From a virus (Duplodnaviria; Caudoviricetes), in the IMG/VR virus record IMGVR_UViG_3300029288_000106, positions 1 to 64,000 of that record: a stretch of 64,000 nt of DNA. One strand, given 5' to 3'. Position 1 is the stretch's first letter, and each line of letters starts with the position of its first letter. The position numbers and the translations under genes were made by a program. Below the pieces are notes generated by a model, which did not search any database, was not told the origin of the DNA, and saw nothing but the letters and a program-made list of their open reading frames with translations. Of the stretch, positions 3,370 through 64,000 are shown one piece after another.

Positions 3370-3382
3370 TGAAATTCTCCTT

Positions 3383-17445: not shown

Positions 17446-20400
17446 CTAAGCTCTTCTATTTATTTCTCTCAATGCTTTTAACACAGATTGATCATCAGAA
17501 GAATCTTCAGTTATAGCTTCAGCATTTTTATCCCCTGGATGAAATGAAACAGGATTATCAACTTTAATAGGAACAAGATTTAATGGCTTGTCTGAAAAAG
17601 GACCATTTAAGTTAGGTTCACTATCAGCTGTTCTTGTATATATCCAATAATAATTCTGTAAGTCAACAAGCAAATAAGTTTCTACACCAGATGTATTAAT
17701 TACTTTTGGTTGATCTATCCACCAAAATTCTTCTACAAATTTCTTACTAGAATCTCCTTTACTAACTTGTCTTAGTATAGCTGCTCTATCGTCACCATCA
17801 ATAGATTCATCACCTAAATCAACAATAGCTCCATAAACAGATCCAGCTACCCCATCAATAACATCTTTCGATCCTTCCATCACAGCTTCTCTAGAAGAAC
17901 CATCCTCAATAAAAACAATCTGTGTAACTTTATCTGGGTGATCTATTTTACCTGTTTTTGGATCCTTCTCAAGATTTATAGCTTCAAAATGAAAGAAAGG
18001 ATCAAAATGTCCCATCCATCTTTGTTCAATCACAAGCTCTCTAAAAATAGTATATGGCTTCAAATCCCTATCTAGAGAAAGACCATCACAAGCTATTTTT
18101 CTTTTAGTAAGAAGTTGTTTTGTATCTTCGCTCAGTAAATTCAAATCTGCTGTATATTTAGCGATGTTAAATCCAAGTGTTCGAAGATCTAGTATTAATT
18201 TTCTGACAGCAAATAATGGTATAACATCCCCTGGTTTAGCTTTTAATCTTAACCAAAAATCAGTCTCAACAACTGGCATTTTCCTAACACTGAATGTACC
18301 ATCTGGATTCATCACTTCTTGTTTTTTATATGTTTTTACTCCAGACATAGCTAATGATAAACAATCTCCTCCTGAAGCATAAGCAACGTCTGAATGTAAA
18401 AATCTTCGTGTACTCTTTGGCATTCTTATCTTCTTCAAATCAAGATAATGGATAAGATCTATCTCATCATTCAAACCAATCATGATAGTAGGTTTAGTCA
18501 CAGGATTTTGTTTTGTTTTATCATAGCACTGCTGAATAATTTTTTCTGAAGGAAAGAACTTAGATTTTCTTCTTCCTTCTACTGAAATACCTGCTATGTC
18601 TCTCAATGCACCTACAATATCTGCAGTAAAAGGCTCAAGAAATTCGATTGGAATATCCTTAACTTCTCTTCCATCTAAAATTGCTTTTTCCTTTTCTGCT
18701 GGTAAATATATAATATTTGAGGGAGTATACATATCTCCTATAGCTACAGAAAAAGTTCGGCCACTTAATTCTCCTGTTTTTATTGCCCAGAATGGAATAT
18801 CTACTATATGTACATTTGGCGAGCCTTTTCTTTCGGTGATAAATGTGTTAAGAAAAGATAATTCTTCTTGTTTAGATGCAACAAGAAAAAACTTTCCTAA
18901 AGATTCTTTGAATAGCTGAACACCACTCTCTGTTTCCCCATATGAATCATAAACAAATCGAGATTCAAATCTTCTAACTGTGTTATCATATGCCTTAAGA
19001 ACTCTTTGTTTTTGATTAGTTGTAGCATCGGGAGCATCTACTTCATCCATTATTGCTATAATTACATCAAGTCCTTGCGTATTATGAACAAAAACTCCTG
19101 CGGAAGTAGCAAAATTATGATAATTTTCAATTGTTAAATCATACACATCTTGCATTATATCTTCTTCTACAGCAACAACAGTATGATTATTAGGATTATT
19201 TGTCTTCATTCTAAGAGATTGTTCTGCTTTCCACTTCTTTCCTGCTTCTGTTTCTAACCACTTTTTTCTTGATTCTTTCTGCTTTTTCTTGGCTTCAGGA
19301 AGTTGAGCTAACAAAGCCATTTTTTTAGCATGACCTGCTAAATTAAATGCCTTTGACCTAATAGAAGCTTCTTTCCTCTTTTCTACTCCTTTTTCTGATA
19401 ACCAGAACTTCTTAAGTGCTTCAACTCTTTTTTGATTAGCTCTAGTTTTAATATCTGGTTTAGCATTATGAACAACAAAAAAAGTTTTGTTTAAATTTGT
19501 CTGTCTTAAGCTTTGTGCTTTTCTTCGCTCAGGTGTCCAAGAAGCTTTTAACCCATCAGATATTTTCTTCTTTATCTCTGGTCTTTTCATCACTTCTTTA
19601 CAAGTCATTCTAGACTTTTCTCTTGCTTCAGGTGTATGAAGTGTTTTATGAGCAAGCATTGCATGAAATTTATAATGTGCTTTTCCAGTCATATATTTCA
19701 AATTATCTGGATTGTTATTATACTTATTAAAATCCCTGTGATGAACTACACACCCTCCTTTAAACTGACCTTTCTCATTTCTAAACTTTTGAGGAATATC
19801 CCCTGCCATTCTTCTATGTGTAAAACACCAGCATTTCTCGTCAACCTCAAAAAATTGCTCATAACCACCATTTCCTTTTCTGCGGTATAAAGGCATTAAA
19901 CTATCACCAAAACTTAAATTTTGTGCTTCTTTATATTCTCCATTTCGAAGTAAAAAAGGATGATCTGGAGTACATACAATAAATTGATCATTATCAAGTT
20001 TTACTTTAACTGTTTTTGTATTTAGTTTTGTCTTCAAAGCATTAGCAACTTTTCCAGAAACAACTTTTCTTTTCTCTATATCATAAGAATATACCCAATG
20101 CTGCTTACCTTCTTCTCGCTCTTTTATTATCTCGGGTATAGTTAATTCTCTTCCATCTAAAAGAGAAATCTTAGTATCTGCACTTAAACAACCAAAACCT
20201 CGTGCATTGGGACTTGCTAGAGCATAAGAAAATAAAGGTATATCTAACCATTGATTAGGAACAGTACCTTTAACTACACCATGCTTTCTAAACCACGGAG
20301 ATGCTACTAAATAACTTTGTAATGTGCCGTAGGCTTTTGATTCTGAAAGTGATTTAGTGAGATTGAAAAAAACAATTGACATTCTTCCACCAGCTGTTTT

Positions 20401-20706
20401 CTTGAAAAACTGCCATGGATTTTTCAAACATAATATCTTATTCATAACAGCTGCAATACCTAATACAGCTGCCGATGTCTTTCCTACACCAATTGCTCCA
20501 GTTAATACAACAAGATATTTTATATCTTCCGCCATTACCTGAGTCAGTTCATCTTTCCATACTTTATATATGGTCTTTCCGTTTTCTGTAAGACTACCGA
20601 AGAACTGATCAGAAGAAATAAGAGTATTTATATTAGCTGGATTTTCTTTAAATATCCGCTTGTTACAATAATCAGCATATGTTTCTATTCGCTTATGTAG
20701 GGCCAT
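17446..20706 (-). CDS. terL: Terminase large subunit containing an intein
   Basis: Walker A GAIGVGKT, Walker B IAIMDE, nuclease motifs HSDVA and KIDHP..SKDVIDGVAG. Confidence 0.9.
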   Translation of the reverse strand: MALHKRIETYADYCNKRIFKENPANINTLISSDQFFGSLTENGKTIYKVWKDELTQVMAEDIKYLVVLTGAIGVGKTSAAVLGIAAVMNKILCLKNPWQFFKKTAGGRMSIVFFNLTKSLSESKAYGTLQSYLVASPWFRKHGVVKGTVPNQWLDIPLFSYALASPNARGFGCLSADTKISLLDGRELTIPEIIKEREEGKQHWVYSYDIEKRKVVSGKVANALKTKLNTKTVKVKLDNDQFIVCTPDHPFLLRNGEYKEAQNLSFGDSLMPLYRRKGNGGYEQFFEVDEKCWCFTHRRMAGDIPQKFRNEKGQFKGGCVVHHRDFNKYNNNPDNLKYMTGKAHYKFHAMLAHKTLHTPEAREKSRMTCKEVMKRPEIKKKISDGLKASWTPERRKAQSLRQTNLNKTFFVVHNAKPDIKTRANQKRVEALKKFWLSEKGVEKRKEASIRSKAFNLAGHAKKMALLAQLPEAKKKQKESRKKWLETEAGKKWKAEQSLRMKTNNPNNHTVVAVEEDIMQDVYDLTIENYHNFATSAGVFVHNTQGLDVIIAIMDEVDAPDATTNQKQRVLKAYDNTVRRFESRFVYDSYGETESGVQLFKESLGKFFLVASKQEELSFLNTFITERKGSPNVHIVDIPFWAIKTGELSGRTFSVAIGDMYTPSNIIYLPAEKEKAILDGREVKDIPIEFLEPFTADIVGALRDIAGISVEGRRKSKFFPSEKIIQQCYDKTKQNPVTKPTIMIGLNDEIDLIHYLDLKKIRMPKSTRRFLHSDVAYASGGDCLSLAMSGVKTYKKQEVMNPDGTFSVRKMPVVETDFWLRLKAKPGDVIPLFAVRKLILDLRTLGFNIAKYTADLNLLSEDTKQLLTKRKIACDGLSLDRDLKPYTIFRELVIEQRWMGHFDPFFHFEAINLEKDPKTGKIDHPDKVTQIVFIEDGSSREAVMEGSKDVIDGVAGSVYGAIVDLGDESIDGDDRAAILRQVSKGDSSKKFVEEFWWIDQPKVINTSGVETYLLVDLQNYYWIYTRTADSEPNLNGPFSDKPLNLVPIKVDNPVSFHPGDKNAEAITEDSSDDQSVLKALREINRRA
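19081..20190 (-). mobile_element. Intein (370 aa) with HNH homing endonuclease
   Basis: Begins CLSADTKI, block B CTPDHPF, HNH HHRDFNKYNNNPDNL, ends VYDLTIENYHNF..VFVHN; +1 residue Thr. Confidence 0.92.
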
Positions 20707-21435: not shown

Positions 21436-21990
21436 TTAATCTAAAACACCTTTTATATCCACTGCTGACATATATTTAATAACATACATCTGTCCATCTG
21501 TTCCTCGATGCTGATATTCCCACAGTACATTCTTATCGTATACAACTCTTAATCCTATCTTAAGACTTGGAGAAGTTGGCCAGAACCGACCTTTTTTATC
21601 ATGATAACCTTTTCCAAATCCTATGAGTATTCCGTCATAAGGAAGATAAAATTGTCTACAAACTTCTGGTATTTCAATAAGTTGATCTTCCCCGTGATGT
21701 GTTGGACATGGAAGAGGCCAGATAAAAACTAAATCTCTTAGTGGATGAATAAATTTCTTGATCGCCCCACATATCTCACAATAGAATGGAACTTTATGAA
21801 TTTCTGAATCAAGTAGAATATCTGTAGGCCTAAAAGGATGATTTGTTTTTCGAGTCTCTGCAGCACAACTTATAACTTGAGTACCGCAATTCCAACAACA
21901 ACTAGTATCCTTTGAAAGATCTGTATGTTCACTTATCATAGTTCTAATCCTGTGGATAGTATGTTGCACTATTTCCTGGAGTCTCTTCAA
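21436..21990 (-). CDS. GroES/Cpn10-like co-chaperonin with N-terminal Zn ribbon
   Basis: IHPLRDLVFI..GILIGFGKG..LKIGLRVVY..DIKGVL; N-terminal CWNC/CEIC. Confidence 0.7.
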   Translation of the reverse strand: MKRLQEIVQHTIHRIRTMISEHTDLSKDTSCCWNCGTQVISCAAETRKTNHPFRPTDILLDSEIHKVPFYCEICGAIKKFIHPLRDLVFIWPLPCPTHHGEDQLIEIPEVCRQFYLPYDGILIGFGKGYHDKKGRFWPTSPSLKIGLRVVYDKNVLWEYQHRGTDGQMYVIKYMSAVDIKGVLD

Positions 21991-22384
21991 ACGAAACAGA
22001 TACTAACTTAAAAGAAAGTTGACTTGAATTGATGTACTGCATTAAATCCTGAGCTATCCATAAACAAAAATTCTCAGCGGTTGGAGTAACTGATACACCA
22101 ATAAGTCGAAGAGCTGGAGTGAATTTCATCAGCACAGACTGATCAAGAATTACCTGATAAAATGGATCGGATTTCTCAAGAACAAGAGAATGATCGTAAA
22201 TATCAATAATTTGTTTTGCCCATTTCAGATCACCAAAATCCACTATCATTCCTGTCGAAGACTGTACCTCCCCCTCAAACACAACAGCTACTTTCCCCGA
22301 ATGCCCATGAATATTTCGACACATACCAGGATGATTCATCAGCCGATGAGCATACTCAACTCGATATTCTTTTCTTATCTGCAT
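21944..22384 (-). CDS. queD: 6-carboxy-5,6,7,8-tetrahydropterin synthase
   Basis: AHRL..CRNIHGHS, GMIVDFGDLK, DHSL, PTAEN, ETP. Confidence 0.92.
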   Translation of the reverse strand: MQIRKEYRVEYAHRLMNHPGMCRNIHGHSGKVAVVFEGEVQSSTGMIVDFGDLKWAKQIIDIYDHSLVLEKSDPFYQVILDQSVLMKFTPALRLIGVSVTPTAENFCLWIAQDLMQYINSSQLSFKLVSVSFEETPGNSATYYPQD

Positions 22385-22385
22385 A

Positions 22386-22997
22386 TTACACTCCTTGTTC
22401 TGTTTCAGTAAACTCACATATATGAGGAATACACCTATATCTTTCTCCTAAACCCATCCCACAACCAAGTAAAAAATAATCTCCTATATAATTAAACCCT
22501 TTTAATGTAGCTTCAATGTTTTTAAAATTAACTATTCTATTACGGGGCTTATCAACTAATGTACAACTTTTTATAGTCATATTCTTCAACTTAGATTGCA
22601 TTTTAATATACTCAGATACTATTGATAATGTTTGACCTGTATCAAGTATATCATCAATAATCCATATATCTTTACCTTCAAGATTTATAGAAATATGTTT
22701 ATAAAAATTGATTCTAACTTTACCTTCCTGAATTGCAAGACATGCATGAGTACTATTTCCATAAGTTGAAACACCAATAAAATCGTACTCAAAATCATAA
22801 ACACCTAAACGAACAAGAGCATCTATTAATCTACTTCCAAACCACTCTCCACCTTTTAATACAATGAGAAAAACTACGTTTTTAAACTCTCCTTTCTGAT
22901 CAACATAAATCTGAGCAGCAAGAGACTTAATTATACGTTCCACTTCTATTTGTGAATATAAAATTTTCATGTTTCTTGGAACACAATCTTCCATCAT
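22386..22997 (-). CDS. hpt: Hypoxanthine-guanine phosphoribosyltransferase-like protein
   Basis: VLKGG and PRPP-binding loop IIDDILDTGQTL. Confidence 0.85.
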   Translation of the reverse strand: MMEDCVPRNMKILYSQIEVERIIKSLAAQIYVDQKGEFKNVVFLIVLKGGEWFGSRLIDALVRLGVYDFEYDFIGVSTYGNSTHACLAIQEGKVRINFYKHISINLEGKDIWIIDDILDTGQTLSIVSEYIKMQSKLKNMTIKSCTLVDKPRNRIVNFKNIEATLKGFNYIGDYFLLGCGMGLGERYRCIPHICEFTETEQGV

Positions 22998-23632: not shown

Positions 23633-23956
23633 TTATTGTTCATCTTGTATTCTGGGTATAGTAAAATTAACTTGCTCTGCAGGAGGATAATTTTCAATTG
23701 CATGAGCTTTTACAACATGTACCTCAACTAACTCAAAAAATATTTCTGGTATATTATTAGTTATATTAAAAATTTTTTGTAATAATAAAAGTACTTTATT
23801 AGACTTTCCACTTCTTATCTCTTCATCTAATTTATCTCTATCAACAACACCATCTCCAAAACTACAAAAGCGATACCCATTTATAACAGTACCACCAGCA
23901 CTTCGAGGTTTAATACTCAAAACCTCATCAACAGTCATTTCAAAATTGACTTTCAT
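23633..23956 (-). CDS. Hypothetical protein
   Basis: ORF abutting neighbours. Confidence 0.5.
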   Translation of the reverse strand: MKVNFEMTVDEVLSIKPRSAGGTVINGYRFCSFGDGVVDRDKLDEEIRSGKSNKVLLLLQKIFNITNNIPEIFFELVEVHVVKAHAIENYPPAEQVNFTIPRIQDEQ

Positions 23957-24600
23957 TATTTTTTTTCTCCTGTAGGAAAAGAAATATAAGAAGGCCTTTT
24001 TATCTCAACATTCAAAGCTATTCCACCTCTTGCTTTCATTGTGATTGAAAGCTTGAAAGTTTTAGGCTCACATGCTTTTGTCCAATCATCAGCTATTCTA
24101 TTAGCAAGAGCTTCGATAAACATACCTTCATTTCGAAAGCTCTGAAAATAGAATTTCATACTCTTACTTTCAATACATGCTTTATTTGGGGTGTATTTTA
24201 TAACTATATAATACAAATCAGGATAACTTGTCAATGGACACACAGCTGAAAGCTCATCAAATGGAACAGTAATTTCAAAATCATTTTTTGAATTAGGATT
24301 ATCAAAAGTTTTAAGTATTCTATAATCTGGATGCTCGAATTTATGAAAAGAAATGCCTTTTCCTGGCGCAATTGCATCTGGGCTGTCTAGAAGTTCTTGA
24401 TCTGTATTTTTAATTTCACTTGTGTGTTTTTTATATGCTTCTATTTCAAGCATAAATTTTTCTTGTACATCTGGACGCATTGCTTTAAGAAAACTTATTT
24501 GTGTGTCTATAGGCATACAAATAAACATTTCACAAGCTAAATCGTGATCTAATATTTTCCCAGCTTCCATACTAATCCCTTTCATCTGCTTTTTTAACAA
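23956..24600 (-). CDS. queF: preQ0 reductase (NADPH-dependent, type I) with N-terminal extension
   Basis: Catalytic CPLTSYPD, QueF motif ESKSMKFY, RNEGMFIE, ARGGI. Confidence 0.88.
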   Translation of the reverse strand: MLKKQMKGISMEAGKILDHDLACEMFICMPIDTQISFLKAMRPDVQEKFMLEIEAYKKHTSEIKNTDQELLDSPDAIAPGKGISFHKFEHPDYRILKTFDNPNSKNDFEITVPFDELSAVCPLTSYPDLYYIVIKYTPNKACIESKSMKFYFQSFRNEGMFIEALANRIADDWTKACEPKTFKLSITMKARGGIALNVEIKRPSYISFPTGEKK

Positions 24601-36256: not shown

Positions 36257-37342
36257 TCAAAATAAAGTTTTAATGGCTCTAAACTCTTCGATTGACGGAG
36301 CAATGCCTTTTGCTAATAACTGAGAAAAATACATTACATTAACTTTCTGTCGCTCGTGATGAGATGTTTCTAAAGCCAGTAAATCGATATCTAATCCTTT
36401 CAAGTAGCTTTCTATCTTTTCTTTCTCTTCTTCAGTATAAGCTGTTGTATAATGAGGATTAGTAACATTAGGTCTAATCTTTGCTTCTTCTGATACAACA
36501 ACAGCTAATGGAGGTAAAGTAAAATCAAACTCTCCTTTAATATTACATTTAGGTACAACGACATTACCAAAAGCAGCACTCTTTAACCACGACGTACTAT
36601 CTACTGAATAAAATGGAAATCGCTGTATCATATCAACAGATGTTACAGCAAAACCATGTACTTTAAGTTGAGGATTAACTTCAGCAATTATTTGAAAACA
36701 CTGATACGCAAATGTAAGAAAATCAGCTTTCCTCAAACCAGTAGCCATTCCACCTAAACCAATATACTCATATTCTTCAGCATATTTTTTCAACCACTTA
36801 AAATCTTCAAGAAAATGAAATACTGGAAGAGGTTTTAAACCATTTGACTCCATATATTTCTGATTTTCCCATGATTTTTCAGCATTGTAAATAATATCAA
36901 GATTAACATAAGCATGAAGCTGATCTTTGTATTTATGTACAAATGCAATGTACTCATCAAGGTACTTCCTAACTTCTGTATTATCAGCAAGGGAAAAATC
37001 TGCCATCCCCTGAACCATGCTTCTCTGTTTTTCTGCAAAAAATATTTGTGCATTTGAATCCAGCCTTTCTCTAAACTCCTCTTCTGAAAATGTTCTTATT
37101 CCTTCCACCTTTTCTGAATTAACTGTTGAATTGCTATTAATCAAACCTGTCATTGCATTAAGCAACGAATGTGCTCCTGAGTCCATAAATATACTTAATT
37201 TAGAGTTGCTGTCTAAAAGCTTTGCTACATCTTTTCCTTTCCAAAACGTTTCAAGCGAAGCAACTTCCCCTGACAACAATTTATCAGTCCAAAATCCTTC
37301 TTTATTAGATGTAGCAAGATTTGCCATATAAATATATTTCAT
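36257..37342 (-). CDS. dpdA: DpdA-like 7-deazaguanine DNA transglycosylase (TGT fold)
   Basis: FMDSGAHS, NLDII, PVFH, YIGLGG, VHGFA, YSVDSTSW; full preQ1 pathway in the window. Confidence 0.75.
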   Translation of the reverse strand: MKYIYMANLATSNKEGFWTDKLLSGEVASLETFWKGKDVAKLLDSNSKLSIFMDSGAHSLLNAMTGLINSNSTVNSEKVEGIRTFSEEEFRERLDSNAQIFFAEKQRSMVQGMADFSLADNTEVRKYLDEYIAFVHKYKDQLHAYVNLDIIYNAEKSWENQKYMESNGLKPLPVFHFLEDFKWLKKYAEEYEYIGLGGMATGLRKADFLTFAYQCFQIIAEVNPQLKVHGFAVTSVDMIQRFPFYSVDSTSWLKSAAFGNVVVPKCNIKGEFDFTLPPLAVVVSEEAKIRPNVTNPHYTTAYTEEEKEKIESYLKGLDIDLLALETSHHERQKVNVMYFSQLLAKGIAPSIEEFRAIKTLF

Positions 37343-38067
37343 TTCACTAATTGCTCCTGTCGAGAATCATAAATTAAAATAGCTTGTTTTGGTATATTGT
37401 TATTTTTTAGCATACTATCAAGATTTTCTAAATAGACTAATATTTCTGGCCACCAAGTATCAAGATCTAAAGCTTGAGCCAGATCACAAAGCTTTCTAAG
37501 CAAAGGCAAATCCCAATCTCTATATACGTTATAATCAAAAGAAGTTTCTTTAGCTTTACAACCAAACAACCAATTCCTTCCATATTGCCTTTTAGTTAAT
37601 CGAGCTATGCCTTGCTTATTGCCATCAATATGCATATGAGGCAAGGCACAATGCAAAGGCTTAATAGAATGAATCTGGCATAAATTATCTTTTAAAAACC
37701 GACATCTTTTACTATCATTTTGATAAGCTTTAATCTCGTAACTCTTTTCATTTATCTTAACCACAAAATTATGGCATTTTTTTATATCAAGAACAGTAAG
37801 GTCATCAACATAATTATCAAAACAAACAGCTTTACTTGCTAAATACACCAACGAAACAGGCCTTTTTGAACAACACTCTCCACAAGTACTACACTTAAAA
37901 TTACGAAAGAACTTTTCAGAAATTTCAACCTTTTTTGGAGGACTAACTTTTAACTTATAATTCTTTGCAAAAGTAATTGTAATATCATGTTTGGTTAGTC
38001 GATAAATATATTGAAACATATAAACAACTGAGCCAAGCAAATTCTCATCATATTTCTCAAGAATCAT
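37339..38067 (-). CDS. YkgJ/FliB-like cysteine-cluster protein
   Basis: FKCSTCGECC..CRFL..LCQIH..KPLHC..P. Confidence 0.75.
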   Translation of the reverse strand: MILEKYDENLLGSVVYMFQYIYRLTKHDITITFAKNYKLKVSPPKKVEISEKFFRNFKCSTCGECCSKRPVSLVYLASKAVCFDNYVDDLTVLDIKKCHNFVVKINEKSYEIKAYQNDSKRCRFLKDNLCQIHSIKPLHCALPHMHIDGNKQGIARLTKRQYGRNWLFGCKAKETSFDYNVYRDWDLPLLRKLCDLAQALDLDTWWPEILVYLENLDSMLKNNNIPKQAILIYDSRQEQLVK

Positions 38068-38978
38068 CAGAAAAATCCTTTTTGTTCTTCTTTTACTTTA
38101 ATTTGTGAATACATATAACTCTTCACTTCATATGATGGATAATGTGTTTTAAATAAAGACAAATTTTTGTTCAATTGAGCACCACAATTAAATTTCTTCA
38201 TGCCTCTCTGATACAAATCTCTCAGTACATAAATATCAAGCCATTCCATCATATTAGATGGAAGTTCCCAGTACTTACCAAAATTTGCTAAATCATAAGC
38301 TATGTCTTTTTGTATACCCACAACACGAACTGCAATTAACTGCTTAGCCATACAAAAACAATAAACAAAATAACCTACATGTTGAATTGCATAATCATAA
38401 CAACGAATATATCGATTAGTTGGAAACATTATTTTAAATGTGTTAGGATCAGCAAGTTTATGCTCTACCCACTCATCATGTAGAAGTTTTACTGCATTAC
38501 TATCAACTTCGCTTGACATGAATGATCTTGTTTTTACTTTATATCTTTCTAACTGTTTAAACGGATATATTAATCGTTGATATCTTTTTTTCTTATTTGG
38601 ATACGAATTAGGATTTAAAACTTTCTCAAGATCGTATCCAATTTCAATAAAAGAGTGAGCACCAGACAAAAAAACTTCAGGGTAGAGAGAATAAATAGGC
38701 CCTAATTTTATCAAGTAATCAATAAGTTTTCTTTGTATTTTATCATTCTCTGGATTGAAACAGAAACTTTTAAATCGGCCCTGAACAGAAGGAAGAAGAA
38801 GTATATTTCCTTCAAAAACAATCAAGCCATACATATTTCTTATTTCATCTAAATTGAAGTATGTATTCAACACTGGAAGAGAAAAATTATGTACTCCCTT
38901 ATTATCAAGATCCTCTATAGAAGTTAATTTCTTCTTATATTGATGAAGATCGCTGAGTATTGTTTGTATTTTGCTCAA
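38067..38978 (-). CDS. GNAT-fold protein resembling DUF2156/Fem aminoacyl-tRNA-dependent transferases
   Basis: KKKRYQRL basic helix, LHDEW, C-terminal RGMKKFNCG...NLSLFKTHYP pattern. Confidence 0.55.
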   Translation of the reverse strand: MSKIQTILSDLHQYKKKLTSIEDLDNKGVHNFSLPVLNTYFNLDEIRNMYGLIVFEGNILLLPSVQGRFKSFCFNPENDKIQRKLIDYLIKLGPIYSLYPEVFLSGAHSFIEIGYDLEKVLNPNSYPNKKKRYQRLIYPFKQLERYKVKTRSFMSSEVDSNAVKLLHDEWVEHKLADPNTFKIMFPTNRYIRCYDYAIQHVGYFVYCFCMAKQLIAVRVVGIQKDIAYDLANFGKYWELPSNMMEWLDIYVLRDLYQRGMKKFNCGAQLNKNLSLFKTHYPSYEVKSYMYSQIKVKEEQKGFF

Positions 38979-38986
38979 TTAAAAAC

Positions 38987-39172
38987 TCATACAATATTAT
39001 ATTTTTCTACTATGTCACAAATCCACTTAACTCTACCTGGTGTCATTTCATATTCTGGATGATCTACCATATCAATTATAAATTTCTTCTCTTTCTCAGT
39101 TAATCGAGTAGCTAGTAAATCAATAGCTTTTAATAATCTTTTTGCTTCTTCAATATCTATACTATCGCTCAT
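38987..39172 (-). CDS. Small hypothetical protein
   Basis: Likely start MSDSID overlapping the queE stop. Confidence 0.5.
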   Translation of the reverse strand: MSDSIDIEEAKRLLKAIDLLATRLTEKEKKFIIDMVDHPEYEMTPGRVKWICDIVEKYNIV

Positions 39173-39851
39173 GTGTCGCTCCAGGCCATAATACTTTATG
39201 TATTTGTAGAGAATAACTAACATCAGGTATCATATGAGCTTCATCTATCATCATTTCAGCTAATGCCTTTGGCCAGCCAGTAAAAATATCTGAATATTTG
39301 ATAGCAGGACTAAATACTTTCCTGGCCTTCCATGTATCTCTATTAGCTAAAACCAACCCCCGAGCTATGTAAAAATCATTAATTCCATCAATCACAAATT
39401 TAATAACATCACAATCCCGAAGTTGAAAAAAAGTCATAGCTCTCATTTGATCTTCCATTTTTGATGATGGAAGTTTATAATCAACAATCAAACGAAGATT
39501 TTCTTTAGCTAGCATATGATTAAATAAATCGTGTGAAACACTTAAACTGCCATTTGTCTCGATCGATACTCTATGTTTTCTATCAAGAAGACCAAGTACA
39601 AGTTGGGTAGTTTCTTCTTGAATTAAAGGTTCTCCACCAGTTATTGTGACTTTTGGTAAGATATTGAGTTTTAATATATCTTCAACAGATTTTAACTCTT
39701 TTGCCTTCTGGTCTTGAGCATATTTTGTATCACAAAATTCACACCTTAAGTTACATCCTCTTAAACGAATAAATGTACAGAGCTCGCCTGCTCCATTAAA
39801 TCCATTAACTTCACCATCGATACTATCAAAAATAGCCTGAATATTTAACAT
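39162..39851 (-). CDS. queE: 7-carboxy-7-deazaguanine synthase (radical SAM)
   Basis: IFDSIDGE, FIRLRGCNLRCEFCDT, ITGGEP, IETNG, SLQIHK. Confidence 0.93.
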   Translation of the reverse strand: MLNIQAIFDSIDGEVNGFNGAGELCTFIRLRGCNLRCEFCDTKYAQDQKAKELKSVEDILKLNILPKVTITGGEPLIQEETTQLVLGLLDRKHRVSIETNGSLSVSHDLFNHMLAKENLRLIVDYKLPSSKMEDQMRAMTFFQLRDCDVIKFVIDGINDFYIARGLVLANRDTWKARKVFSPAIKYSDIFTGWPKALAEMMIDEAHMIPDVSYSLQIHKVLWPGATHER

Positions 39852-39985: not shown

Positions 39986-41200
39986 ATGATAGAAAATATT
40001 GTGGTTAAAACAATGCAGGAACTAATCAATCTTCTCTATATATACACTAAAGAGAGAGATACATTAGATGAAGATTTGTCTAAATTGAATATTGATGATT
40101 TTGAAAGACTTAGAGCAGTAGTAGAAGTGCCTTATATCAAAGCAAAAATAAACCACATCGATGAGAAATCAAAATCAATCGATCAGACCACGTCCCCACA
40201 TCGATCAGACCACATCGATGAGAAATCAAAATCAATCGATCAGACCACGTCCCCACATCGATCAGACCACATCGATGAGAAATCAAAATCAATCGATCAG
40301 ACCACGTCCCCACATCGATCAGACCACGTCCCCACATCGATCAGACCTGTAAACTGCTGTGAGGATATTTATAATAAAATAAATAATAATAATATATATA
40401 ATAATATCCCCACAGCAAATCAATCTCACAGCAGTAGTCCCCACAGCAGTTGTGATGATCAAGTCGATGTGGTTACAGCTGCCCCTCCAGCGATCGACCA
40501 ATCCCACATCGATGAGAAATCAAAATCAATCGATCAGACCACAGCAAAAAAGAAGTCAACCACCGATGAGAATTCTATTGCTTATCAACTTACACAACTG
40601 CTACTTGATTTGATTTTAGAAAGACGACCCACCAGATTTGGCGGAGAATTAATTGAAAAGGGTGAAGCATATAAGAAAAAAATAAAATCATGGGTCGATT
40701 ATATGGATTACATTATTCGAATTGATAAACATGACCCAGAAAAAGTTCTTAATGTAATTTTGTGGTGCCAAAAAAATGAATTTTGGCAGAAAAATATTTT
40801 GTCTACAAGTAAATTGAGAGAACAGTACGGCAGACTTGAAGATTTAATGGATGCAGAAAATCCAACCACAGCAGAAATAACTGAAGATAAAAATTCACAA
40901 CTTACTATAGAAATTACATATGAATATGAAAAAGAAGTCCTTAATTCACCAAACCCAAATAATTGTCCAGTTGATTGGTCAGCTGAAAATAAAAAGAAAT
41001 TCATAAAAGCAGCTGAAAAAGCAAGAGAATTTGCAAACAAGTTTAAAATTAGACCAGAAAACATGGCTAAGTATTTAATCAGAGCATTAAAACAAAGTAA
41101 AATAGGATCTACACCTCTAGCTCCTGGTCATTTATGTTCAGATCATATGTGGACAGTAGTTATGCCACAATTTATTGATGAACTTGGATTGATTAATTAA
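39986..41200 (+). CDS. Replication initiator, lambda O-like
   Basis: WVDYMDYIIRID..WCQKNEFWQKNILSTSKLREQY resembles the lambda O C-terminus (FWSGNVLSPAKLRDKW); internal iterons; upstream of helicase. Confidence 0.75.
   Translation: MIENIVVKTMQELINLLYIYTKERDTLDEDLSKLNIDDFERLRAVVEVPYIKAKINHIDEKSKSIDQTTSPHRSDHIDEKSKSIDQTTSPHRSDHIDEKSKSIDQTTSPHRSDHVPTSIRPVNCCEDIYNKINNNNIYNNIPTANQSHSSSPHSSCDDQVDVVTAAPPAIDQSHIDEKSKSIDQTTAKKKSTTDENSIAYQLTQLLLDLILERRPTRFGGELIEKGEAYKKKIKSWVDYMDYIIRIDKHDPEKVLNVILWCQKNEFWQKNILSTSKLREQYGRLEDLMDAENPTTAEITEDKNSQLTIEITYEYEKEVLNSPNPNNCPVDWSAENKKKFIKAAEKAREFANKFKIRPENMAKYLIRALKQSKIGSTPLAPGHLCSDHMWTVVMPQFIDELGLIN
40152..40542. repeat. Iteron array/probable replication origin: 57-bp unit x3 plus partial copies
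   Basis: ACCACATCGATGAGAAATCAAAATCAATCGATCAGACCACGTCCCCACATCGATCAG repeated; AT-rich tract at 40365-40406. Confidence 0.8.
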
Positions 41201-46193: not shown

Positions 46194-46977
46194 AATAATT
46201 CAAAGTCTATTAACTGCCAGATCTGATAATGATATATACATCGCTGAATGTTGTGTCAATGAATGTCGATTAGACGGCTGGGCTATACGAAAGTCTTATT
46301 CTAATCCACTCACAATAGGTTATGAAATCAAAATAAGTAAATCAGATTTTTTGACAGATAAAAAATGGACTGGCTATTTGTCATATTGTAATGAATTGTA
46401 CTTTGTTTGTCCGTCTCATCTTATACAGCCAAATGAAGTGGGAGAACAAGTAGGATTGATGTGGGTAGCATCAACTGGAACAAGAATTTATACAAAGAAA
46501 AAAGCTACCTACAGAATTGTAGAAGATAAGTATATTAATCAAATTTTGAGATCAGTACTTTTTAATAGATGTGTAGTTAGAGAAAATTATTGGGGTAATG
46601 CACAGCCAGACAAATCAACGTTTTGGAAAAGATGGTTGCAGAAAAAAGACGAAGATAAAGAATTAGGCTGGAATGTTAGTGAAAAAGTAAGACAATTAGT
46701 TGAAGAGCGTGTTGATAAAGTGAAAAGGGAAAATAGTAGCTTAAGAAGAAAAATTGAAGAATTTAAACGCCTTGAAGAATTACTAATAAAACTTAATTTT
46801 AATCCTGAATATTTTGATTTGAATGAAGTTCAAAATCGTATTAAAGGAGCAATACCCAAAGATTTACTTTGGACAATTGATCAAGTTATAGATAGACTTG
46901 ATCGAACAAAGAAAAAACTATTACTTTTAGAAAGGACAAAAGCAGATGGACAAAACACAGATGACCCAAGGAATTGA
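46183..46977 (+). CDS. MmcB-like PD-(D/E)XK nuclease
   Basis: RLDGWAI..GYEIKISKSDFLTD.KW..Y..YCNELYFVCP. Confidence 0.8.
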   Translation: MNAEIIQSLLTARSDNDIYIAECCVNECRLDGWAIRKSYSNPLTIGYEIKISKSDFLTDKKWTGYLSYCNELYFVCPSHLIQPNEVGEQVGLMWVASTGTRIYTKKKATYRIVEDKYINQILRSVLFNRCVVRENYWGNAQPDKSTFWKRWLQKKDEDKELGWNVSEKVRQLVEERVDKVKRENSSLRRKIEEFKRLEELLIKLNFNPEYFDLNEVQNRIKGAIPKDLLWTIDQVIDRLDRTKKKLLLLERTKADGQNTDDPRN

Positions 46978-47497
46978 GATGTTTCTTAAAGGCGCAGGAA
47001 TTGATTTAACAAATGAACATTTCCAGAAAACTCCAGCTAGAGTTACTAAAGCTTTTGCTGAGACATTTTTATCTGGATACGAAATGAATATTCAATCAAT
47101 CCTCGAAACAACATTTACTGAAAATAAATATGATCAGATGGTAGTAATAAGTAATATACCATTCTGTAGTATGTGTGCACACCATTTGCTTCCTTTCTAT
47201 GGTCATGCGAAGATCGGATATTTACCAGATGGTAAAGTCTGTGGCTTATCAAAATTAGCTAGAGCATTAGAAGTACACTCGCGAAGATTACAAATTCAAG
47301 AAAAGCTTACCCAAGATCTTGCTGAAGATCTAATGAAGTATCTCAAACCTAAAGGCGTTGGAATTATTTTAGAAGCTGTTCATTTGTGCATGACAGAGCG
47401 AGGAGTGATGAAATCAGGAAGTTTAACAAAAACATCTTGTTTACTTGGTGCATTTAGAGACGATGCATCAACACGACAAGAATTCTTGTCTTTCTAA
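46946..47497 (+). CDS. folE: GTP cyclohydrolase I
   Basis: TPARV, SMCAHHLLPFYG, GLSKLAR, RLQIQE, HLCMTERG. Confidence 0.95.
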   Translation: MDKTQMTQGIEMFLKGAGIDLTNEHFQKTPARVTKAFAETFLSGYEMNIQSILETTFTENKYDQMVVISNIPFCSMCAHHLLPFYGHAKIGYLPDGKVCGLSKLARALEVHSRRLQIQEKLTQDLAEDLMKYLKPKGVGIILEAVHLCMTERGVMKSGSLTKTSCLLGAFRDDASTRQEFLSF

Positions 47498-55081: not shown

Positions 55082-55843
55082 ATGGGCAGTAGTGTAGTAG
55101 TAGTTTATTCAGGCGGATTAGATAGCACAGTATTACTAAATCATGCTGTAAAAACAATTGATCGAGTGTTAGCAATAAACTTTAATTACGGATCAAAACA
55201 TAATAATAAAGAACGAGATGCAGCTAAAGCTGTTTGTGAAGAACTTTCAGTTCCACTTTTTCTTGTTAATCTTCCAACTGATATAATTTGGATTGATCCG
55301 ACCTATCATTCTGAACGACTTGGGACTTTACTTAAGTCAAATCTAATGGCAAAAGGAAACGAAATACCAGATGGTCATTATGCTGAAGATGTGATGAAAA
55401 AAACAGTTGTCCCATTTAGAAATGGTATTATGCTATCAATAGCAGCTGGATTTGCTGAAAGTCATGATTGTAAATTTTTATGGTTAGCTAGCCATTCGGG
55501 CGATCATCATATATACTGTGATTGTAGACCAGAATTTACAAATGCTATGGCTTCTGCTGTACATTTTGGTACATATACTAATATTGAATTGAGAGCTCCG
55601 TTCAGCAATAAAAATAAAGCAGAAATTGTGAAACAGGGAGTTGAAGAAAATGCTCCAATGCATTTAACTTGGAGTTGTTATAAAGGTGGAAATAGACCGT
55701 GTCTAACTTGTGGCACATGCATTGAAAGAACCGAAGCATTCAAATTAGCTGGAATAAAAGATCCAACTCTATCCGATGCTGAATGGAAAATAGCATTAAC
55801 TCATCTGGAAAAAACAAACAATTTGATGAAAGAACAATCATGA
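55082..55843 (+). CDS. queC: 7-cyano-7-deazaguanine synthase
   Basis: SGGLDST, YGSKH, VPFRN, YCDCRPEF, TWSCY..CLTCGTCIER. Confidence 0.95.
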   Translation: MGSSVVVVYSGGLDSTVLLNHAVKTIDRVLAINFNYGSKHNNKERDAAKAVCEELSVPLFLVNLPTDIIWIDPTYHSERLGTLLKSNLMAKGNEIPDGHYAEDVMKKTVVPFRNGIMLSIAAGFAESHDCKFLWLASHSGDHHIYCDCRPEFTNAMASAVHFGTYTNIELRAPFSNKNKAEIVKQGVEENAPMHLTWSCYKGGNRPCLTCGTCIERTEAFKLAGIKDPTLSDAEWKIALTHLEKTNNLMKEQS

Positions 55844-59171: not shown

Positions 59172-60053
59172 TTACTTTTTTCCTAATATCTTATTATAAG
59201 CATTAATATAAAATTGAACAAGATTTTTTGGGTGCCAATTTTGTAAAATCCATTCGCGGCTTTTTTGTTGATATTCTCTGAGCTTGTCTGTATTAACAAG
59301 TAGATTGTCCAGCACTGTATCAAGAACATTCAAATCAGCATAAACCCAAGCAGGATGAAAAAAGTTATTAATAACTGCTAAACCAAAACAAGACCCTTCT
59401 AATGATGTCCGATGAAATGTATTATTTATCACATCATCTACTAGAATGTCACTATTTCTCTTCTCTAGTAAATTATCTTCATAAGAAAAATTTGAAAAAA
59501 CTTTTACTATAGCTTTATCTGTAAATTTAGATAAAATTTCACATACCTCAGGTTTTCCTTTTGTTCCAATCTGATTTACTGGAAGAGAATTGGTTGGAGC
59601 AAATGCAATTATTGGCTTTTCATTTTTCTTTAACAAAGGAGTATATTCTTCAGGATTGATAAGATTTGGTAAGGTCATGAGTTTTGGATACTGTCTCATT
59701 TGTAGTGGTTGAGATATACAATAAACATATGGTGTAATTCGTGCATACCAATCAAGAGGCATTCTCTGTGGTACAGAATGAAGCTGAATAATTATTTTCT
59801 TTTTCCTTATCCATTCTTCTGGAAGTAAATTTATTTCATTATGAAAATGAATGATATCTGCTTCAGCAACTAAATTTTGTATTTGCTTATCTTCAGTATT
59901 GAAAATAATATCAGATGGAAATTTCCGGCCATCTCTATACTGAGTTCTATGAGCAATCCATCGAACTTTAAGATCAGTATAATTATTCAAACATTTGCAG
60001 ATCTCATAAGGAGCAGCGGCCAAAGCGGTTTTTGATACATGTATTATATTCAT
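59172..60053 (-). CDS. Glycosyltransferase (GT-B-like)
   Basis: ADIIHFH, IAFAPT..KG, SDILVD..SLEG. Confidence 0.7.
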   Translation of the reverse strand: MNIIHVSKTALAAAPYEICKCLNNYTDLKVRWIAHRTQYRDGRKFPSDIIFNTEDKQIQNLVAEADIIHFHNEINLLPEEWIRKKKIIIQLHSVPQRMPLDWYARITPYVYCISQPLQMRQYPKLMTLPNLINPEEYTPLLKKNEKPIIAFAPTNSLPVNQIGTKGKPEVCEILSKFTDKAIVKVFSNFSYEDNLLEKRNSDILVDDVINNTFHRTSLEGSCFGLAVINNFFHPAWVYADLNVLDTVLDNLLVNTDKLREYQQKSREWILQNWHPKNLVQFYINAYNKILGKK

Positions 60054-61783
60054 TTCTTTATAATATCCACCACGAGAGATAAAGGACGTTTTGGATTTTG
60101 AACTCTCTCATCAAAATCTGATGTTCTAGTTACCATTCCTTTTGAATAATCAATAGCTTTAATAACTGGAGTTCCATCCATCTTATAATATTGTAGGTAT
60201 TCAATTCTTGAATCAGAAAAAAGACTTTTTTGAATCAGATAATCAACACAATCAAACCTAGGAAACCATTTATGGCCTCGAGTTCCATCTGCATTTACAC
60301 CTCCTACTGGATCAAATACAACATCCCCATTCTCATTTTTTACTGATCGATTTTGATAAATATCACAACCATAATCAGGTAGAGATAATCTAAATAATCC
60401 TCCAGGCCGAAGAACTCTATATATTTCATCCATAACAGCTATTAATTTTGGATTAAAACAAATATGTTCAAAAACATCTTCGGATTGTATTGAATCTACT
60501 GAATTATCTGGTAGAGGAATTGGATCAGTAATATCATGATGAATACTTGTGCATGAACTCTCTTCTAATGTAAGTCCGATTAAATTATCATATTCTGGAA
60601 GAAGAGGAACAGTTCCAATATAAAGATGGATATCTTTTTTCTGTTTTATAGCAGACCAAGATAAAACAGGAAGTTTAGACCATGAATTTAAAGCCTCACA
60701 AATACAATTAATTTCATCGTCTGACATTTCAGGATAAAGAGGAAGGGTAAGGATTTGATTGCAAATTTTTTCAGTATTTACTAAATTATCACTTCCTTTT
60801 ATTCTATTCAAATAGCCAGATTGAAGATGAACAGGAATAGGATAATGAATAGCAACCCCAATATTGCAAGATTTTAGAAAGTCTATTAATTTACTCCTAG
60901 AATTACAGATATCTCTTACAACGCAGAGATGCCAAACGGGCTCAGAAAGAATATCCACTTTCTGAGGAAGTAATTTTTTAGGATCAAGAAATTTAGAATA
61001 TTTATAAACTATATTTCTTCTTTTTCCATTATCTTCACTTAAATAAGTAAGTTTTGCATTAAGTACAGCAGCCTGAATTTCATCCATTCGAGAATTCCAA
61101 CCAGGAAATAAACTATTTTGTTTTTCTTGCCATCCATATTGTCTTAAGCTTATTAGTTGTTTAAAAACTTCTTGATCTTTAGTAACCACAGCTCCAGCAT
61201 CACCTAAAGCACCTAAATTCTTAGTAGGATAAAAACTAAAAGCCCCGGCATCCCCAAATGATCCAACTCGTCTACCATTGTATGAAGCACCATGAGCTTG
61301 ACAACAATCTTCCACAACTTTTAAATTCAATCTTGAAGCAATAGCACAAACAGCTTCAATTTTACAGGGTTGGCCATACAAATGAACAGGAATAATTGCT
61401 TTTGTCTTAGGACTAACTGCATTTTCTATTTTATTTGGATCAATAGTAAGTGTATGTTCTTCTATATCTACAAAAACAGGAATTGCTCCAATCATTTCAA
61501 TTGCAGCAACTGTAGCTACAGAAGTATGAGATACAGTTATAACTTCATCGCCGGAACAAACTCCCACAGCTTTTAAAGCAAGGGCTAAAGCTTCTGTTCC
61601 ATTACTTACACCAACACAATAATTAGTGTTACAGTAATTTGCAAATCTTTCCTCAAATATTTTTACTTCTTCTCCCAGAATATACCAGCCACTATTCAAG
61701 ACTTTATCAATTCGAGAATTAATAATATCCCTGTACTTATCAAAACTTGCTTTTGGACAAACAACTGGAATAACTTTATCCAT
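60050..61783 (-). CDS. DegT/DnrJ/EryC1/StrS (FdtB-like) sugar aminotransferase fused to a C-terminal SAM methyltransferase domain
   Basis: SGWYILG, PVHLYG, EDCCQAHGA, SFYPTKNLGALGD; C-terminal DNSVD..VFEHI..RVLRPGG. Confidence 0.9.
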   Translation of the reverse strand: MDKVIPVVCPKASFDKYRDIINSRIDKVLNSGWYILGEEVKIFEERFANYCNTNYCVGVSNGTEALALALKAVGVCSGDEVITVSHTSVATVAAIEMIGAIPVFVDIEEHTLTIDPNKIENAVSPKTKAIIPVHLYGQPCKIEAVCAIASRLNLKVVEDCCQAHGASYNGRRVGSFGDAGAFSFYPTKNLGALGDAGAVVTKDQEVFKQLISLRQYGWQEKQNSLFPGWNSRMDEIQAAVLNAKLTYLSEDNGKRRNIVYKYSKFLDPKKLLPQKVDILSEPVWHLCVVRDICNSRSKLIDFLKSCNIGVAIHYPIPVHLQSGYLNRIKGSDNLVNTEKICNQILTLPLYPEMSDDEINCICEALNSWSKLPVLSWSAIKQKKDIHLYIGTVPLLPEYDNLIGLTLEESSCTSIHHDITDPIPLPDNSVDSIQSEDVFEHICFNPKLIAVMDEIYRVLRPGGLFRLSLPDYGCDIYQNRSVKNENGDVVFDPVGGVNADGTRGHKWFPRFDCVDYLIQKSLFSDSRIEYLQYYKMDGTPVIKAIDYSKGMVTRTSDFDERVQNPKRPLSLVVDIIKK

Positions 61784-62168
61784 TTTTATTTCCTATCATT
61801 TCTTCAAATGTCAAGTAGTCGTTAGAATCATATGAATGTGAAGCAACAACTAACAAAATTGAGTCTTCTTCAGCAAAAATTTCCTTTGTCCATACAAAAG
61901 TATCAACAAATAACGATTGTCCTCTTTCCAAGCATACCACATTATTTGATTGATTAGTTTGTTTGATTTCAATCTCAATCTTTCCACTTATACAAATATA
62001 AAACTGTTTACATAATTTATGAGCATGACCTCCTCGAGTATGTCCTTGAGGCACATTTTTTATTATGAAAATTCTCTTTGGAATAAAAGGGATATTCGAG
62101 AATTCAATTGGAATAAGATCTCCTCCTCGAATACTATCTTGCAAGATCGGAAAAGTATGTATATTCAT
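61776..62168 (-). CDS. FdtA/QdtA-family sugar 3,4-ketoisomerase (cupin)
   Basis: IPFIPKRIFII..RGGHAH..YDSNDY. Confidence 0.9.
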   Translation of the reverse strand: MNIHTFPILQDSIRGGDLIPIEFSNIPFIPKRIFIIKNVPQGHTRGGHAHKLCKQFYICISGKIEIEIKQTNQSNNVVCLERGQSLFVDTFVWTKEIFAEEDSILLVVASHSYDSNDYLTFEEMIGNKNG

Positions 62169-62183
62169 ATTATCATTCCTTAT

Positions 62184-63527
62184 CTAAACACGTTTTTGAA
62201 ACATTTCTCTCCATGTTCCTTCTAGTAGTAATACCATCTCTGTTACTTCTTGATCAGACATTGCTGAAAAATTAACTTTATATTCTCTTCCTGAATGAAA
62301 GAAAATATCATAAAAGTCTCTGTGACTCTTTATCCTATGCTTTGCAAGTATGTAATCATAAAGAGGAGAACCAGGATATGGACAAGTATAAGTACAAGCA
62401 AATTGAATTCGAGGATCTATTTTAAGAATTGTTTTCAATAGTTCAAGTGAAGCTTTTGCATCAGCTTTTGTTTCAGTCAACTGACCTACCATAATGCTTG
62501 TAGTAACAAAAATTCCTATTCGAGCTAATCTTTTAATAACACTAACAACCATTTCTGTAGTATAATTTTTTCCTATCGTTTGTAATATTCGATCTGATCC
62601 AGATTCAATACCAATACCTATAACTCTACAACCCGAATTTTTCATATCAATAAGTGTTGAATCATCCATCCTTGACAATATATCAATTCGAGAAGATACT
62701 GAATAACCTACTTTTCTATCTAAATTTTCTATTCCTTTAACAATTTGCTTTGCTCGATTTGGAGAACACAAAACTGTATCATCAGAAAAGTACAAAACAT
62801 TGCCATCAAATCTCTTCAAAGCATCTGATGCTTCTTCCATCATTATATTAACTGGCCTATAACGAGGTTTACTGTGATGGTAACAAAAATTACAATTATA
62901 TGGGCATCCTCTTCCTCCATGAACATTTATAACTCTATCTGCTTCATCCCAATGCCATTGAGTATTTCTATAGTATTTTCCAATTGGTAACCATTTTTCA
63001 GCTGGAAACAAATCATACTGAACAGGCGGAAGTTTAGTAAGATCTTCAATATAATCTCCCACTCCTGTATTTGTAAATTTATTTCCTTCTTTTATTACAA
63101 GTCCTTTAATATCAAATATACTGTTATTTCTGCGTAAAGCTTTTACAATTCGATCAAGAGTAATTTCTCCTTCGCCAATCACTCCTATATCAGCACCTGT
63201 AATTTCAATAGCAAATTCAGGAATAGGTGAAACCATCTGGCCACCAACAATAATTGGAAAATCTCTTCCTGCCTTATTCAACATTTCAATCATTTCTCTA
63301 TTTTGTTTCAACTCAGGATATAAACTTCCAAATCCAACAACAAGGGGTTTTAATAACATAATCTGATTAACTATATTTTGTAAATTACCTTCTTTAAAGA
63401 ATACTCTTACATCTTCTCCTTGTGCTATTAGATAACTAGCTAAATAAGGATAAGATAAAGGAAAAGTATAAGTAATATCACAAGATACTAAAACAACTGG
63501 TCCATTTTTGTTTTTGCTTACAATCAT
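62184..63527 (-). CDS. Cobalamin-binding radical SAM protein
   Basis: IIVGG..GEGE B12 domain; GRGCPYNCNFC; GIESGS. Confidence 0.9.
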   Translation of the reverse strand: MIVSKNKNGPVVLVSCDITYTFPLSYPYLASYLIAQGEDVRVFFKEGNLQNIVNQIMLLKPLVVGFGSLYPELKQNREMIEMLNKAGRDFPIIVGGQMVSPIPEFAIEITGADIGVIGEGEITLDRIVKALRRNNSIFDIKGLVIKEGNKFTNTGVGDYIEDLTKLPPVQYDLFPAEKWLPIGKYYRNTQWHWDEADRVINVHGGRGCPYNCNFCYHHSKPRYRPVNIMMEEASDALKRFDGNVLYFSDDTVLCSPNRAKQIVKGIENLDRKVGYSVSSRIDILSRMDDSTLIDMKNSGCRVIGIGIESGSDRILQTIGKNYTTEMVVSVIKRLARIGIFVTTSIMVGQLTETKADAKASLELLKTILKIDPRIQFACTYTCPYPGSPLYDYILAKHRIKSHRDFYDIFFHSGREYKVNFSAMSDQEVTEMVLLLEGTWREMFQKRV

Positions 63528-63530
63528 ATT

Positions 63531-64000
63531 TTAAACTTTCTTAAACAGATACGAGGCGTGGTATTCATCATTTTTTACATCTACTACATATTCTACTTTA
63601 TCTACTAATTCAAGTTTATTCAATTTAAACATCTCAAGCAGCTCGTTTTCATTATAATGAATTTCAAAAACCGGAACTTCATAAGCAAGCTTCTTTAAAT
63701 ATTGAGTAGGTTTAGATTTACAAGCTATTGATCTATGTAATATTACATATTGTTTTGATACTCTAGTTGCTTCAGAAATATGCTGAAGTGCATTAGAAAC
63801 ATGAATAAGTATACTTCCTAGAATAACAAAATCAAATTCATTATCGGAAAATGGAAGATTTGCTCCGTCAGCAACAATAAAATTAGCAGTTGAATAATAT
63901 TCTTTAGCTTTTTGAATCATTGCTTCTGAATAATCTACACCGGTATATTTAAGCTTTGTTTGAAAAAGTATAGATAATACCTCATAGTAATATCCAGTAG
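63531..64000 (-). CDS. Class I SAM-dependent methyltransferase (partial, extends beyond window end)
   Basis: Frame open to the edge: TGYYYEVL..YTGVDYSEAMI..LPFSDNEFD. Confidence 0.85.
   Translation of the reverse strand, partial: TGYYYEVLSILFQTKLKYTGVDYSEAMIQKAKEYYSTANFIVADGANLPFSDNEFDFVILGSILIHVSNALQHISEATRVSKQYVILHRSIACKSKPTQYLKKLAYEVPVFEIHYNENELLEMFKLNKLELVDKVEYVVDVKNDEYHASYLFKKV

Follow-up and report, generated by a model that had tools for sequence, protein, structure and literature searches.

The synthesis of preQ1 by FolE, QueD, QueE and QueC together with QueF, and the exchange of guanine in DNA for this base by DpdA, are established, and dPreQ1, or a base derived from it, is to be expected in the DNA of a phage with such a gene set. 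The transfer of amino acids from aminoacyl-tRNA to primary amines by enzymes of the FemX type is established as well. Tailored forms of dPreQ1 have been described in phages: the methyltransferase DpdM is tied to mdPreQ1 in Cellulophaga phiSM and Vibrio VH7D, and the VH7D homologue makes mdPreQ1 in E. coli; the DNA of vB_FspM_immuto_2-6A (immuto_2-6A), a Flavobacterium phage, holds N-formyl-dPreQ1 (fdPreQ1), attributed to DpdN (PMC10516641). In phage Mu, Mom transfers glycine from Gly-tRNA to DNA (PMC13219725). Here we analyse a gene, called X in what follows, at 38067..38978 on the minus strand of a 64,000-nucleotide stretch of phage DNA (the window; bases 1-64000 of the 105,263-bp linear virus record IMGVR_UViG_3300029288_000106, ~68% complete), whose product we propose to be a preQ1 aminoacyltransferase. 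An earlier note on this DNA had suggested that X and an adjoining Cys-cluster gene aminoacylate and/or methylate the preQ1 amine of the phage's DNA.

X encodes a soluble double-GNAT protein of 303 residues, read from a TTG start. Its family comprises 179 clusters at 50% identity in a profile search, and the family profile, built from a 133-row alignment, retrieves the synthase domain of L-PGS (4V36) with an E value of 7.4e-4 and, ranked after it, another three MprF structures. PF09924 (LPG_synthase_C, DUF2156) is matched by 16 of the 133 members at E<=0.1, the best of them reaching 26.2 bits, below the gathering cut-off of 27.5. The AlphaFold2 model of X has a pLDDT of 93.8 and a pTM of 0.91; prediction from the single sequence gave an unusable model (pLDDT 37.5). 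Foldseek ranked A-PGS/MprF first for the good model, then Sbb17 and L-PGS. Structural alignment with VIA-align gave Z 18.8 (rmsd 4.2, 258 residues aligned, model residues 12-296) against the DUF2156 protein 2HQY, Z 15.2 (rmsd 4.0, 245 residues) against L-PGS 4V36, Z 15.0 against MprF, Z 14.7 against Sbb17, and Z 13.9 and 13.4 against FemX (4II9: Z 13.4, rmsd 4.1, 255 residues). An Atlas feature search agrees, with a top match of 0.97 in whose members PF09924 occurs at 33%.

A basic helix and the lysine of a Phe-Lys motif are the hallmarks that set aminoacyl-tRNA-dependent GNATs apart from other GNATs (PMC9351520, PMC12945691). In X the basic stretch covers residues 129-137, at the head of a helix (129-145) that starts KKKRYQR and opens the second GNAT domain; across the 133 sequences, residues 125-139 have a mean net charge of +4.2. 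The profile alignment places KKKRYQRL over the L-PGS helix SGKKRAGLR and FNCG over FNLG-type motifs, and L..FK aligns with GLRSFK of 4V36 in a weak second profile segment. K277 is 100% conserved across the family, with F or Y before it; its equivalence to FemX K305, A-PGS K840 and L-PGS K813 is by sequence alignment and not by residue-level superposition. The conserved Q/RxxGxG/A loop that binds the acetyl-CoA pyrophosphate after beta-4 is absent from the family, 12 of the 133 members having scattered matches and none of these lying at a conserved place. The globular 303-residue model has no membrane or flippase domain. Because the fold, the basic helix, the invariant Phe-Lys lysine and the lack of a conserved acetyl-CoA loop agree, the enzyme class is well supported: X is very probably a double-GNAT of the aminoacyl-tRNA-dependent aaPGS/DUF2156/Fem class, as the earlier note had supposed and as profile, Foldseek and VIA-align comparisons all indicate, with a predicted transfer activity.

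The gene neighbourhood of X suggests an acceptor. X loci dereplicated at 70% identity form 28 groups, and preQ pathway genes are linked to X in 20 of these, which is the tight co-occurrence with queF and dpdA that the proposal called for. A folE, que or dpd gene lies in the fetched DNA of 19 groups, and in one further group queF and dpdA stand at another place of the provirus that holds X; seven groups are contigs of at most 3.3 kb, too short to tell. In 15 groups a pathway gene adjoins X, overlaps it or is joined to it in a fusion, in many gene orders (dpdA-queF-X-queC-queD; folE-queC-X-dpdM-queF-dpdA; X-queF-queC-dpdA; queC-folE-X; queE-queD-folE-queC-queF-X), and in a further GC-rich phage queC, X, folE and dpdA occur, its record also containing queF. 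The linkage persists in distant members of ~20-30% identity, and the transglycosylase that partners X may be DpdA1, DpdA3 or a third TGT-like type. In all loci in which a DpdA-type gene was seen and the flanking sequence was long enough, QueF was present as well, and the reductase motif is found in every X-linked QueF examined; a requirement of X for the preQ1 amine would predict this. Two records at least 90% complete have X but show no DpdM, and the phiSM cluster has DpdM but no X; the two are separable. A tblastn search with X and four diverged members found no X domain in 50,697 phage records, at a sensitivity limited at ~20% identity, no cultured phage among them giving a match. Searches with single distant queries gave no matches.

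One relative ties X physically to base insertion. The protein P0080 (586 aa; identical in two sequencing runs) consists of X at residues 18-316 and a C-terminal half that is a DpdA3, 56% identical to DpdA3 of immuto_2-6A. Downstream of it lie a dpdM homologue, a kinase gene and queF. The immuto_2-6A cluster runs dpdA3, small open reading frame (ORF), dpdN, kinase and queF; comparing the two gene orders, X and DpdM therefore occupy the place of DpdN, a known amine-tailoring enzyme. Being fused to DpdA3 in one case, and standing in for DpdN, X has a functional link that is much firmer than the neighbourhood alone would give.

The preQ1 pathway that the earlier note had assumed is encoded in full by the window, as FolE, QueD, QueE, QueC, a reductase QueF and DpdA, with queD, queF, folE and queC scattered across it. 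The radical S-adenosylmethionine (radical-SAM) CDG synthase gene queE (39162..39851, minus strand) matches phrog_2076 (E 2.5e-32) and TIGR03963 (E 8e-46). The preQ1 maker is queF (23956..24600, minus), an NADPH-dependent preQ0 reductase (PF14489, E 7.6e-21) that scores above the TIGR03139 preQ1-synthase cut-off (118 against 86.9 bits) and contains the reductase motif ESKSMKFY together with CPLTSYPD; the reductase motif is the criterion that separates QueF from QueF-L (PMC10516641). The remaining steps belong to queD (21944..22417, minus; PF01242, E 7e-30), the GTP cyclohydrolase I gene folE (46946..47497, plus; PF01227, E 1e-62) and the preQ0 synthase gene queC (55082..55843, plus; 253 aa, without a Gat domain; PF06508, E 4e-53). 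The DNA-guanine transglycosylase gene dpdA (36257..37342, minus) is of the DpdA1 type (phrog_887, E 4.8e-43): its product is 37% identical to phage 9g DpdA over residues 116-265, matches phiSM DpdA1 at E 1e-17 and has the motifs DSGA, NLD, HGFA and SVDS. A PF00551 formyltransferase (DpdN) was not found in the 105-kb record, of the completeness given above. A phosphoribosyltransferase gene (22386-22997) overlaps queD; such a domain is fused to FolE in locus L002 and adjoins folE in immuto_2-6A, and it is a recurring partner in these clusters. Two QueF genes among the relatives contain an intein with a homing-endonuclease-like region (L002:11505-12986, L047:11552-13030).

Between X and dpdA lies the Cys-cluster gene (37339..38067, minus; CxxCxxCC/YkgJ family, PF03692, E 2.9e-6). 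The earlier note had called it YkgJ/FliB-like and part of a new modification; the family stands, and the gene is, by its sequence, a homologue of DpdM, the published preQ1 methyltransferase, rather than a new candidate. Its product is 26% identical over 232 residues to phiSM CEPG_00054 (E 4e-10), and a profile made from X-linked copies only retrieves phiSM DpdM at E 2.5e-48. C59, C62, C65, C66, C122, C130, C140 and probably C170 align with cysteines of DpdM, the spacing being CxxCxxCC in the window gene and CxxxCxxCC in the DpdM motif. The gene overlaps dpdA, and queF is in the same genome; formation of mdPreQ1 is a prediction for this phage. The methylation half (+14) of the proposal is already known, because the gene is a DpdM homologue. 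In published co-expression experiments DpdM lowered dPreQ1 from ~2765-3666 to 0-97 per million nucleotides, with only 9-40 mdPreQ1 appearing (PMC10516641, Table 2). The mass missing from that table suggests that the action or the main product of DpdM is not fully explained.

These observations suggest a pathway in which the phage would make preQ1 from GTP via FolE, QueD, QueE and QueC together with QueF, and DpdA1 would swap guanine for preQ1 in replicated DNA. X would then bind host aminoacyl-tRNA through its basic helix and move the amino acid to the 7-aminomethyl nitrogen using the Phe-Lys lysine, as in FemX and aaPGS, the acceptor being suggested by gene context. The product would be an N-aminoacyl-dPreQ1 amide in the major groove. 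Action of X after the insertion of preQ1 into DNA, rather than on the free base, seems most likely, because three unrelated DpdA types would otherwise each need a larger base pocket. DpdM may provide a separable second step, methylating the same nitrogen or the new alpha-amine, or making mdPreQ1 at other sites. A likely purpose of the modified base would be protection from restriction and other DNA-targeting defences. As noted for Mom, amino acid donors are not readable from structure alone (PMC13219725). We put at about 0.65 the probability that X uses charged tRNA to aminoacylate the amine of preQ1 in DNA.

Several observations weigh against this assignment. Searches with X alone gave zero Pfam, PHROG or NCBIfam matches; the identity of X to characterised aminoacyl-tRNA transferases is only 10-16%; the DLMR arginine of aaPGS is replaced by N or F; and tandem GNATs that depend on coenzyme A (CoA) follow closely in the VIA-align comparison (VipF at Z 13.5, MshD and others at Z 11-13.5). 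Turning to gene context, the locus sample came from pattern scans and is biased to close relatives, and related phages share gene blocks; in L048, of which 21 kb was seen, X has no que or dpd gene nearby, the single exception to the linkage; and one prophage group has dpdA and queF at a distance of 23-36 kb from X. The tree of X (25 rows) has poor resolution, and its branches do not group by DpdA type; because it is weak, we claim no order of events. A rival possibility is that X acylates the preQ1 amine from acyl-CoA or acyl carrier protein (e.g. with acetyl), giving an N-acyl-dPreQ1 like the formylated base of DpdN. The GNAT fold is common to acetyltransferases, the tandem enzymes just named reach Z 11-13.5, 13 of the 133 X members match Acetyltransf_6, and the gene context fits such an activity equally well. 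However, the family has no conserved pyrophosphate-binding loop, it has the basic helix and the invariant lysine of the aminoacyl-tRNA enzymes, and its best profile and structure matches are aaPGS and DUF2156; acylation of this kind is unlikely.

The exception in L048 would be accommodated if X, as an aminoacyl-tRNA transferase, served an acceptor that has nothing to do with the DNA base, such as an amino sugar of the phage's glycosylation block, a protein N-terminus or lysine, or a lipid. Glycosyltransferase genes form a large block in the genome, which includes a sugar aminotransferase of the DegT type (60050-61783), and an amino sugar is the acceptor of Sbb17/Orf11-type enzymes. Against this, X adjoins que or dpd genes in nearly all informative loci and is once fused to DpdA3, no sugar-pathway gene stands beside X in the gene-called loci, and the protein has no membrane or flippase domain; we regard an acceptor of this sort as quite unlikely. 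X might also aminoacylate preQ1 outside DNA, as the free uninserted base or in host tRNA, and so regulate supply or disturb host queuosine synthesis. X is linked no less tightly to queF, queC and folE than to dpdA, and the protein is basic (pI 9.2, family median 9.1), a property that tRNA binding alone would explain. The fusion partner, on the other hand, is a DpdA3 that inserts the base into DNA, and the other tailoring enzymes of these clusters, DpdM and DpdN, alter the base found in DNA (PMC10516641), which makes action outside DNA very unlikely.

Returning to aminoacylation of preQ1 in DNA, X relatives lie almost always among preQ1 genes, and once are fused to DpdA; a DNA base decorated with an amino acid is therefore probable in these phages. 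It is somewhat more likely than not that the widespread X family attaches an amino acid from host tRNA to preQ1 in DNA and that, combined from phage to phage with DpdM, with a Trm1-like methyltransferase or with a plain GNAT, it gives rise to peptide-like 7-deazaguanines (aminoacyl, N-methyl-aminoacyl and N-acetyl-aminoacyl). DNA modification that depends on tRNA would then have an origin independent of Mom; in the phage with the DpdA3 fusion, most guanines might be replaced. The Trm1-like proteins, which resemble S-adenosylmethionine-dependent methyltransferases and are 205-207 aa long (L044:5957-6580, L049:9225-9842; Atlas 0.95, PF02005 in 56% of the cluster), occur in X clusters that show no DpdM, where one is a possible alternative methylase. 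P0162 joins the C-terminal half of X to a plain acetyltransferase of the GNAT type, and at L045:1-342 the start of X is overlapped by a plain GNAT gene; these sequences carry hints of N-acetylation of the added amino acid. P0135 (570 aa) joins the last 76 residues of X, about 200 unrelated residues and a DpdA1 domain, and may be a miscalled read-through of neighbouring genes. The X homologue of L048 adjoins a gene with a faint match to T7-type kinases, and the 10 kb to each side of it contain no que genes.

The third TGT-like family, of ~400 aa and adjoining queF (L047:13027-14229, L003:8221-9411), matches unannotated proteins of PA5oct, a Pseudomonas jumbo phage, as well as 'TGT domain' proteins from the Vibrio phages GR11A and GR7B, and is possibly an unnamed DpdA subfamily. 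Its identification as DpdA2 was rejected, as nt-1 and VH7D, the named DpdA2 phages, are not among its 30 matches.

In the window, queE, a small ORF, X, dpdM and dpdA all lie on the minus strand at the positions read by the earlier note, and the junctions it described are present: X and dpdM have one nucleotide in common (TGATG at 38067), and dpdM and dpdA overlap by four (ATGA, 37339-37342). From these overlaps, translational coupling of X, dpdM and dpdA may be inferred. The small ORF (38987..39172, minus), 8 nucleotides from X, is 61 aa long from an ATG behind GGAG, or 78 aa from an ATG further upstream; family searches gave no convincing match for it, no homologue of it was found near X in the loci tested, and it lies outside the conserved module. 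The whole stretch is contained in one contig of sequencing run X1, a run from which this DNA may have come; runs X5 and X8 each have one contig that spans the X-dpdM-dpdA block, and no small indels are listed for it. In the groundwater strain of run X8, a 453-nt insertion stands at the start of X (38977/38978), possibly an extra small ORF. Near-identical DNA was found in landfill and groundwater metagenomes from several studies, and a distant relative with an X-family gene sits in a Desulfosarcina metagenome-assembled genome.

Portal, capsid and tail genes of the T4-like kind are present in the phage record, in which no tRNA gene was convincingly identified. Tandem repeats of ~60 nt at 40137-40352, within a 404-aa replication-initiator-like ORF and at the switch of GC skew, likely mark a replication origin. 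A terminase-like large ORF (1086 aa, 17446-20706) contains an apparent intein with endonuclease. The block at 59172-64000, which runs on to ~72,500 of the contig and adjoins baseplate and tail genes, holds glycosyltransferase-like, DegT-type aminotransferase, cupin-like, methyltransferase and B12 radical-SAM genes, and possibly serves virion glycosylation.

If the proposal is true, aminoacyl-7-deazaguanine would be a new class of natural DNA base, with its enzyme, donor class and acceptor named. The aaPGS/Fem class would extend from lipids, cell wall and antibiotics to DNA, adding to the chemistry of counter-defence and offering an enzyme for putting amino-acid handles on DNA. The prediction is directly testable in the published two-plasmid DpdA system in E. 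coli (PMC10516641). Neither an aminoacyl-preQ1 DNA base nor the X enzyme family was found in the literature, subscription journals being outside the coverage; the earlier note likewise knew of no such base.

The closest described systems are those that make mdPreQ1 (phiSM, VH7D) and fdPreQ1 (immuto_2-6A) (PMC10516641). The window has the same FolE-QueD-QueE-QueC-QueF-DpdA core together with DpdM, X is predicted to tailor the same 7-aminomethyl nitrogen, and a fused relative of X sits in a cluster of the immuto_2-6A type; no X was found in the phiSM and immuto_2-6A clusters themselves. X belongs to the class of double-GNAT aminoacyl-tRNA transferases, whereas DpdN is a folate-dependent formyltransferase. 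With the aaPGS/MprF synthase domain and DUF2156 (PF09924; 4V36, 4V35, 2HQY), X has in common the double GNAT, the basic helix and the N-x-G and Phe-Lys motifs; in contrast to these, it has no N-terminal transmembrane flippase domain, has another residue in place of the DLMR arginine, is only 9-16% identical to them, stays under the Pfam cut-off and is phage-encoded inside DNA-modification clusters. FemABX and Orf11/Sba18/Sbb17 have the same fold (Z 13-15), the catalytic lysine and, as predicted for X, form an amide on a primary amine from aminoacyl-tRNA, but their acceptors are peptidoglycan precursors or streptothrisamine and not a nucleobase. Mom resembles X as a GNAT-fold protein that brings an amino acid from charged tRNA to a DNA base (for X, a prediction), and by this analogy offers a mechanistic precedent. 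Mom, however, is a single-GNAT dimer acting on adenine N6, with a rearrangement afterwards, whereas X has two GNAT domains in one chain, is of the aaPGS/Fem branch and is predicted to act on an aliphatic amine, carried by a base that a separate pathway puts in place; X lacks the single GNAT domain with helix-turn-helix-like insertion that marks the Mom family, and Mom is absent from the fold matches listed for X. Judged from sequence and by analogy, X is a new tailoring family within the known 7-deazaguanine DNA-modification systems, with a predicted Mom- or Fem-like action, and is a member of neither the Mom nor the MprF family.

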